64,000 nt of DNA from NCBI GenBank assembly GCA_000146045.2, contig BK006941.2:64001-128000 (forward strand), in the 5' to 3' direction. Origin of the DNA: TPA_inf: Saccharomyces (lineage: Eukaryota). Positions 46,697-48,474 of this stretch are shown here, piece by piece (the stretch's first letter is position 1; every line of letters begins with the position of its first letter). A program made the translations under genes and the position numbers. The notes below the pieces were generated by a model, which was not told the DNA's origin, did no database searches, and saw only the letters and a list, made by a program, of their open reading frames with translations.

Positions 46697-46797
46697 AGGT
46701 AATTATTGAGTGTTTACTCAATATCTCAGAATTATATACATAACAAATAATAAATGTGCTGTGTTGGCACTTGTTGGAATGAAGCTCTAAAACATCA

Positions 46798-47515
46798 TGA
46801 TGATTGTGTGGATTCTGATGTAATTGTTGGGATTCCATTTTTAATAAGGCAATATGTTGGAACGAGAGTAATTAATAGTGACATGAGTTGCTATGGTAAC
46901 AATCTAATGCTTACATCGTATATTAATGTACACATCGTATACGTTTAAGTGTGATTGCGCCTATTGCAGAAGGAATGTTAAACGAGAAGCTCAGACAATA
47001 CTGAAGCTGTGTTAAAGACCTATTAGCTGAACATGATATGGTAGGTACATATATGAGGAATATGAGTCGTCACATCAATGTATAGTAACTACCGGAATCA
47101 CTATTATATTGGTCATGATTAATATGACCAATCGGCGTGTGTTTTATATACCTCTCTTATTTAGTATAAGAAGATCAGTACTCACTTCTTCATTAATACT
47201 AATTTTTAACCTCTAATTATCAACACAATAATATTAGGTATGTAGATATACTAGAAGTTCTCCTCCAGGATTTAGGAATCCATAAAAGGGAGTCTGCAAT
47301 TCTACACAATTCTATAAATATTATCATCATCGTTTTATATGTTAATATTCATTGATCCTATTACATTATCAATCCTTGCGTTTCAGCTTCCACTAATTTA
47401 GATGACTATTTCTCATCATTTGCGTCATCTTCTAACACCGAATATCATAATATACTAGTAACGTAAATACTAGTTAGTAGATGATAGTTGATTTTTATTC
47501 CAACAGTTTATCAAC
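46798..47515 (-). mobile_element. Ty1/Ty2-type solo delta LTR (minus orientation) split by a tau insertion; delta segments 46798-46854 and 47226-47515
   Basis: Reverse complement of 47231-47515 begins TGTTGGAATAAAAATCAACTATCATCTACTAACTAGTATTTACGTTACTAGTATATTATGATATTCGGTGTTAGAAGATGACGCAAATGATGAGAAATAGTCATCTAAATTAGTGGAAGCTGAAACGCAAGGATTGATAATG... (canonical delta); the delta 3' portion ...AATGGAATCCCAACAATTACATCAGAATCCACACAATCATCA resumes at 46798-46854. Confidence 0.8.
46855..47225 (+). mobile_element. Ty4-type tau solo LTR (371 bp, TGTTGGAACGAGAG...TAATTATCAACA) inserted into the delta, flanked by 5-bp target-site duplication CAATA (46850-46854 and 47226-47230)
   Basis: 371-bp element with TGTTG/CAACA termini and the start TGTTGGAACGAGAGTAATTAATAGTGACATGAGTTGCTATGG that I recall for tau; identical CAATA immediately on both sides; the flanks rejoin into a continuous delta sequence. 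Confidence 0.7.
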
Positions 47516-47697
47516 TAGTAGTCACACTACCAATATATTATCATATACGGTGTTAGAAGATGACATAAGGTATGAGAAGCTTTCATCGAAGGTAGAGGAA
47601 GCAGAAATACAAGGATTTATAATGTAATAGGGTAATGGAACATATAAGGGAGGAGAAATGATGGTGATATTAATATGCAGAAATATCGATTCCATTT
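47516..47697 (+). mobile_element. 5'-truncated delta LTR fragment (plus orientation) abutting the complete delta
   Basis: TATCAACTAGTAGTCACACTACCAATATATTATCATATACGGTGTTAGAAGATGACATAAGGTATGAGAAGC... closely parallels the solo delta at 50939; similarity is lost after about 47697; it encodes the same LTR-internal antisense ORF C-terminus ([22 protein letters not shown]). Confidence 0.65.
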
Positions 47698-48474
47698 TTT
47701 CAAAAAAATAGTGCCAAACTATTAAGAAGTAGCGAAACAGCAAAGGCATATTTCCACATTTCGCTTTTAGCAATATACATAACTATGGTGGCAAGATACC
47801 ATGCAACTAATAACTTTGCCGCAATGACACCTCTATTTCTACTTGTTGTCGTTTTACCTCTTACTTGTTTGAACATTGCTGTTCTAAGACCTAACAATAA
47901 TAGTCCTAATACAAACAGAGGGCATGCTGTTATAAGTATAAAATGTTTGCTGTAACTAATGGTGGGGGAAGATTGCAAAAAACGAAGGATATCAGTTCCA
48001 TTCATTTCCAGGGATTTGTGTTGATATGTGGGGCTATGAATGCGTTGAAGTTTTCAACTTCTGTGAAGGAGTTAAAACAACCACTAAACAATCTCGTTCA
48101 AAAGCTCTAATTACTTGTATATTATTTTATACGTTTATGTCTATTTCAATGCAATTACGTGAAAAATAAAAGAACGCTACCATAAAAATGTTAAAAACTG
48201 GTTAAAAATGTCAAAAAATGGTCCGAAAACTGAAAAAATATTCGTGATACAGTTTGCATAAAAAAAAACTATTGTGCGCGATTAATATAACCTACTAGAC
48301 TTAAATGACGACACTTTAATATGAAGTTCAGTAGTGTGAATTAAATAAAACAGTCAGTTCTTGATGGATTGTACCCTTTAAAGAATTTATCTTTATGTCG
48401 CTGTTACTACGAAAAGCGTGTGCGAGGTATTATAACTATTTTTCTGTATTTTTTATATATTTTTATTTGCCAAG

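Follow-up and report, generated by a model that had tools for sequence, protein, structure and literature searches.

A Ty4 solo LTR nested in a Ty2-type delta within a cluster of Ty remnants upstream of tRNA-His(GUG) on chromosome VII of Saccharomyces cerevisiae

The window, meaning the whole stretch of 64,000 nucleotides that was analysed, belongs to the left arm of Saccharomyces cerevisiae chromosome VII, an assignment that rests on the translations of the surrounding open reading frames together with a tRNA-His gene, and it carries the gene order CHC1-POX1-tH(GUG)-YGL204C-KEX1. The protein-coding genes listed here were recognized from the translations of their ORFs, and the tRNA gene was called by ARAGORN (anticodon GTG).

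38543-43504: CHC1 ORF, clathrin heavy chain
44158-46404: POX1 ORF, acyl-CoA oxidase
46624-46697, minus strand: tH(GUG), tRNA-His(GUG) gene, between POX1 and YGL204C
47700-48005: YGL204C ORF, 101 amino acids
48475-50664: KEX1 ORF, carboxypeptidase

Because tH(GUG) occupies 46624-46697 of the minus strand, the LTR cluster that extends from 46698 upward stands on the upstream side of the tRNA. tH(GUG) is a Pol III gene that draws Ty insertions to its upstream side, in keeping with the binding of the integrase C-termini of Ty1, Ty2 and Ty4 to the Pol III subunit AC40, which directs insertions upstream of Pol III genes (PMC7459421). At the far edge of the cluster, the 3' truncation point of the LTR YGLWdelta2 falls a single base away from the YGL204C stop codon (window 47698-47702). 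Pfam PF23480 matches YGL204C across the full 101 of its 101 positions, and thus the ORF is not cut by this LTR. The features of the cluster are as follows.

46772-46797, plus strand: delta0, 26 nt surviving from the 5' end of a diverged, old delta-like LTR (TGTTGGAATGAAGCTCTAAAACATCA) and cut short by the host delta
46798-46854, minus strand: 3' (U5) part of the host delta, YGLCdelta1 (110811-110858 in Carr et al. File S3)
46850-46854: left CAATA copy of the tau target-site duplication (TSD), also the last 5 nt, on the plus strand, of the host delta U5 piece
46855-47225, plus strand: YGLWtau1, 371-bp solo LTR of Ty4, identical to the published chrVII_s164+_TY4
47226-47230: right CAATA copy of the TSD, also host delta sequence
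47231-47505, minus strand: 5' (U3/R) part of YGLCdelta1 (111230-111509 in Carr et al. File S3)
47506-47698, plus strand: YGLWdelta2, an old Ty1-type delta (111510-111702 in Carr et al.)

The structure is already known, being present both in SGD and in the survey of Carr, Bensasson & Bergman 2012 (PMC3511429), whose Files S2/S3 list it in sacCer2 coordinates that equal window positions plus 64004. There YGLCdelta1 is chrVII_st84-_TY2 (110811-110858 plus 111230-111509, minus strand), a solo and inactive LTR fixed in 11/11 strains; YGLWtau1 is chrVII_s164+_TY4 (110859-111229, plus strand), a solo LTR of an active clade that carries the label 'REannotate_1-nested_LTR' and is polymorphic, occurring in 6/9 strains with data; and YGLWdelta2 is chrVII_st85+_TY1 (111510-111702, plus strand), fixed in 17/17 (PMC3511429). 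The YGLWtau1-YGLCdelta1-YGLWdelta2 arrangement of SGD and Carr et al. is the same object as that described here, with a constant coordinate offset, an identical tau and the same family, TY2, for the host.

Elsewhere in the window, a complete solo delta, YGLWdelta3 (50939-51270), lies upstream of KEX1 and is 89.7% identical to the Ty1 LTR; with the closest tRNA gene of the window 4.2 kb away, it shows no obvious association with a tRNA gene. Diverged delta fragments at approximately 57164-57336 and at 58089-58154, annotated by Carr et al. (PMC3511429), lie upstream of a tRNA-Lys(CUU) gene (58268-58342). There is no annotated LTR near the tRNA-Val(AAC) gene at 9828-9903, and Carr et al. list none on chromosome VII between 1239 and 110811 (PMC3511429).

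The innermost element of the cluster, YGLWtau1, begins with TGTTG (46855-46859) and ends with CAACA (47221-47225), a terminal inverted repeat that can be read directly from the sequence, as can the CAATA pentamers on either side. It aligns end to end and without gaps, at 97.8-98.7% identity, with the 5' LTRs of three full-length S288C Ty4 elements (chrXVI_u33, chrX_i10 and chrVIII_u17), and it shows no differences from the published s164 sequence. [quoted passage not shown] A sequence search of the window returned no second tau copy.

The history of the site can be read from other strains. Loci spanning POX1 to YGL204C were obtained from 13 other S. cerevisiae assemblies by look-up of the exact YGL204C and KEX1 proteins and were mapped to the window by BLAST. 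A look-up by POX1 contributed a single informative locus, as most of its contigs were short-read ones that end at the repeat, and YGL204C proved much more productive. The loci fall into the following alleles.

L001, L003, L004, L008, L014 (n=5): same as the window
L009, L011, L012 (n=3): host delta present, tau absent
L005, L006, L007, L010 (n=4): tau plus an extra insertion
L013, strain YJM689 (n=1): neither tau nor host delta

Two identical pentamers are expected by chance with a probability of about 0.0016 (about 0.16%), given local base composition. In the three assemblies with host delta and no tau, an empty site with a single CAATA, ...TAATAAGGCAATAATATTAGG..., is found, at which both flanks of the tau overlap by exactly one CAATA, the arrangement of a pre-integration allele. 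The pair of CAATA pentamers is therefore a genuine TSD and not a coincidence, and the empty-site alleles prove both the tau insertion and its duplication. The CAATA flanks are common to six tau-bearing assemblies, whose tau copies differ by 0-5 nt, and by their sequences the tau-bearing alleles fit a single insertion event inherited by descent.

Since the presence of the tau and that of the host delta both vary among S. cerevisiae strains, an outgroup is unnecessary for ordering the two insertions. In a search for KEX1 homologues aimed at the orthologous locus of S. paradoxus, the only close matches outside S. cerevisiae, at 80% and 77% identity, were on contigs (3.4 kb and 2.1 kb long) that are too short to include the site.

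A solo LTR is the product of recombination between the two LTRs of a full-length element, in which the body and one LTR are lost and the TSD is kept. By this established route, the solo tau would derive from a full-length Ty4, and none was found at the CAATA site among the 13 spanning assemblies, a small sample. Much of the picture had been drawn by an earlier, sequence-only reading, which placed the cluster beside tH(GUG), singled out the 371-bp element between its CAATA pentamers, took it for a Ty4 tau that should align end to end, regarded its 5-bp TSD as intact, and proposed comparison across strains for presence/absence polymorphism; each of these points is borne out. The same reading also took the intact TSD to mean that no LTR-LTR recombination had happened since, a claim that does not survive, since a solo tau would itself have arisen through such recombination; the intact TSD rules out only recombination with a different Ty4 copy.

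Further elements have entered the same spot in other strains. In L005, a hybrid Ty1/Ty2 delta lies within the tau with a TATAT TSD (47145-47149), and in L007 a Ty1 delta does so with a TTAAT TSD (46872-46876). L006/L027 carries a full-length Ty1 of 5.9 kb inside the tau, at window 46895/46896; in L027 (GCA_030036375.1), where the region concerned covers 11111-17031 and 17171-19152, this Ty1 has a primer-binding site (PBS) TGGTAGCGCC and a Gag start MESQQLSQHSPISH. The flanks of this Ty1 are unmatched (GTTAC versus AGGAT), and its far side leads to a tRNA-Asp(GUC) gene and an RPS25 gene in place of tH(GUG) and POX1, so that the junction looks like the joint of a Ty1-mediated chromosomal rearrangement, or a misassembly. 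L010 (GCA_000977625.3) has a minus-strand Ty3 sigma with a TTGAG TSD at 46706-46710, 9-13 bp away from the ARAGORN-called 5' end of tRNA-His, on its upstream side; this is the characteristic position of Ty3 sigma elements at Pol III start sites, and the sigma is a feature of that other strain only, absent from the window. With these extra Ty1 and Ty3 insertions falling in the same ~450 bp in other strains, the site is a still active target.

Removal of the tau and one CAATA restores the element into which it inserted. The reverse complement of 46798-46854 plus 47231-47505 is a seamlessly joined LTR of 332 bp, whose 5' end (TGTTGGAATA) lies at 47505-47496 and whose near edge is 101 bp upstream of tRNA-His(GUG). 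Without a gap, the rebuilt host delta matches the library TY2-LTR at 321/332 positions (96.7%), compared with 83.1% identity to TY1-LTR. The Gag start codon lies within U5, and the host delta U5 encodes MESQQLHQNPH..., like the library Ty2 LTR (MESQQLHQNPHSL), whereas the library Ty1 LTR encodes MESQQLSQHS..., as do the Ty1 insertions of other strains in their LTRs. On account of its identity to TY2-LTR and of this Ty2-type peptide, the host delta is classed by sequence as a Ty2-type solo LTR, not a Ty1-type one.

The borders of the host delta are less orderly than those of the tau. Its left-hand flanking pentamer is CATCA (46793-46797) and its right-hand one GTTTA (47506-47510); as the two differ, no TSD of the host delta is present. 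At the U5-side terminus (46798-46808, the last 11-14 nt), four mismatches to TY2-LTR are clustered, against 3.3% overall; RepeatMasker clips the outermost 9-11 nt, and the published annotation begins at window 46807. The U5-side end of the host delta may thus not be a clean LTR terminus. In YJM689 (L013, GCA_000976335.2), which lacks both tau and host delta, the flanks are separated by 59 nt with no counterpart in the window, of which 36 nt extend the TGTTGGAATG... fragment at the left and 23 nt are the first nucleotides of YGLWdelta2 (TGTTGGAATAAAAATCAACTATC). The host delta therefore replaced 59 bp, and it is polymorphic in the species despite being fixed in 11/11 of the SGRP strains of Carr et al. 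Although of Ty2 type by its sequence, it did not arise by a single, simple insertion.

The outermost pieces are older still. In YJM689, the delta0 sequence runs on for 62 nt and reaches 86% identity in a gapped alignment with positions 1-60 of TY2-LTR, so that the TGTTGGAATG scrap is a separate, fourth, older LTR remnant. YGLWdelta2 is 87.0% identical to TY1-LTR, versus 76.4% to TY2-LTR; it stands head-to-head with YGLCdelta1 and spans LTR positions 24 to approximately 215, being truncated at both ends, with its first 23 nt, missing from the window, present in YJM689. The YGLWdelta2 of YJM689 (L013 positions 494-711, corresponding to window 47506-47698) is chimeric, in that its first ~150 nt are near-identical to the library Ty1 LTR (over the initial 125 nt they differ at a single position) and the rest matches the old delta2, which suggests that a younger Ty1 recombined with the resident solo LTR in this strain.

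The sequence-only reading also needs revision in this part of the cluster. Its proposal that the sequences flanking the tau rejoin as one continuous minus-strand delta is correct, and the host it named as a Ty1-type delta is of the Ty2 type by the comparisons above. The third delta that it described is head-to-head and 5'-truncated as stated, with the amendment that it starts at 47506 instead of 47516, ends at 47698 and is truncated at the 3' side as well; the small additional TGTTGGAATG fragment also exists, at the corrected coordinates 46772-46797. Two successive retrotransposition events are too few for the locus, given a host delta that has no TSD and replaced 59 bp, and a delta0 that represents a fourth, older remnant.

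Several other accounts of this arrangement deserve consideration. Nested, AT-rich repeats could arise from misassembly or owe their likeness to chance, an account that has in its favour no more than the difficulty of assembling repeats in general, and it is hardly conceivable that the nesting seen here did so: the same structure recurs at 97.8-100% identity in at least five independent assemblies, other assemblies hold the empty-site and the further-nested alleles, and the tau matches published Ty4 LTRs from end to end. A different simplification would derive delta0 and YGLWdelta2 from a single older delta that YGLCdelta1 interrupted, giving a three-level nest. Both pieces are on the plus strand, delta0 begins 26 nt ahead of the host delta, and delta2 is without its first 23 nt, all of which would be expected of a divided LTR. 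This candidate was rejected on the YJM689 allele, in which the 62-nt diverged LTR 5' end is followed by a separate and complete delta2 5' end (TGTTGGAATAAAAATCAACTATC|GTTTATC...); two separate LTR 5' ends make delta0 and delta2 different LTRs, and a common origin of the two is very improbable.

The more evenly balanced question is how the host delta came to lack a TSD. A complete LTR, unmatched flanks and the loss of the intervening sequence point to a pair of Ty2 insertions in the same orientation, separated by 59 bp, whose LTRs then recombined. This is the best fit, a model that draws on a single comparison allele (YJM689) and on the missing TSD; no intermediate allele was found in the sampled assemblies. 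It is also possible, if somewhat less probable, that a single Ty2 inserted and that its TSD, with the 59 bp beside it, was later lost through a small deletion or error-prone repair. The mismatch cluster and RepeatMasker clipping on the U5 side would suit such a damaged or repaired junction. However, the rebuilt LTR is exactly 332 bp long and gapless, begins with TGTTG and ends with TCA; at 47505 it has a perfect 5' end, with delta2 position 24 immediately next to it, and a flanking deletion would have needed to end exactly at the boundary of the LTR. The preferred reading of the host delta is accordingly that two neighbouring Ty2 elements recombined.

Divergence provides an age ranking that agrees with the nesting order: the tau is 1.3% from active Ty4 LTRs, the host delta 3.3% from TY2-LTR and delta2 13% from TY1-LTR. 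The earlier suggestion that the tau inserted more recently than its host holds. In the proposed order of events, an ancient delta-like LTR would have inserted before any of the others, of which 26 nt remain at 46772-46797, and a Ty1-type element would have followed, leaving YGLWdelta2 as its LTR remnant. A minus-strand Ty2-type insertion would then have left the solo YGLCdelta1, without a TSD and in place of 59 bp of the older LTRs, probably when the LTRs of two Ty2 elements in the same orientation, 59 bp apart, recombined. Ty4 integrated last, entering YGLCdelta1 at a point 153 bp from the tRNA on its upstream side and duplicating CAATA, and recombination of its LTRs would presumably have produced the solo YGLWtau1 with its TSD intact. 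It is very probable that the locus is, in sum, an annotated Ty graveyard, built up by repeated Pol III-directed integration and by subsequent recombination that removed the element bodies.

As such, the cluster is of the same kind as, and a typical example of, the clusters of Ty LTRs that lie upstream of tRNA genes (Kim et al. 1998 survey; PMC7459421), with which it shares a location at most a few hundred bp upstream from a Pol III gene, 5-bp TSDs, solo LTRs and the nesting of young elements in old ones. Relative to the annotation of Carr et al., what is added is that the host delta is not fixed species-wide, has no TSD and replaced 59 bp, and that a 26-nt remnant at 46772-46797, missing from the published annotation, lies beside it. 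Within the 371-bp tau, three independent Ty1-family insertions occur among the 13 assemblies, one of them at the apparent rearrangement joint. The tau and host delta may form an unusually hot landing pad, in which LTR sequence or nucleosome positioning reinforces tRNA targeting, and/or the host delta may record a rarely documented recombination of neighbouring Ty2 insertions, although this proposal, taken jointly, is on the whole unlikely. The locus otherwise has little significance beyond that of a clean textbook case, in which Pol III-directed Ty integration, 5-bp target-site duplication, solo-LTR formation and nesting are brought together in one kilobase.
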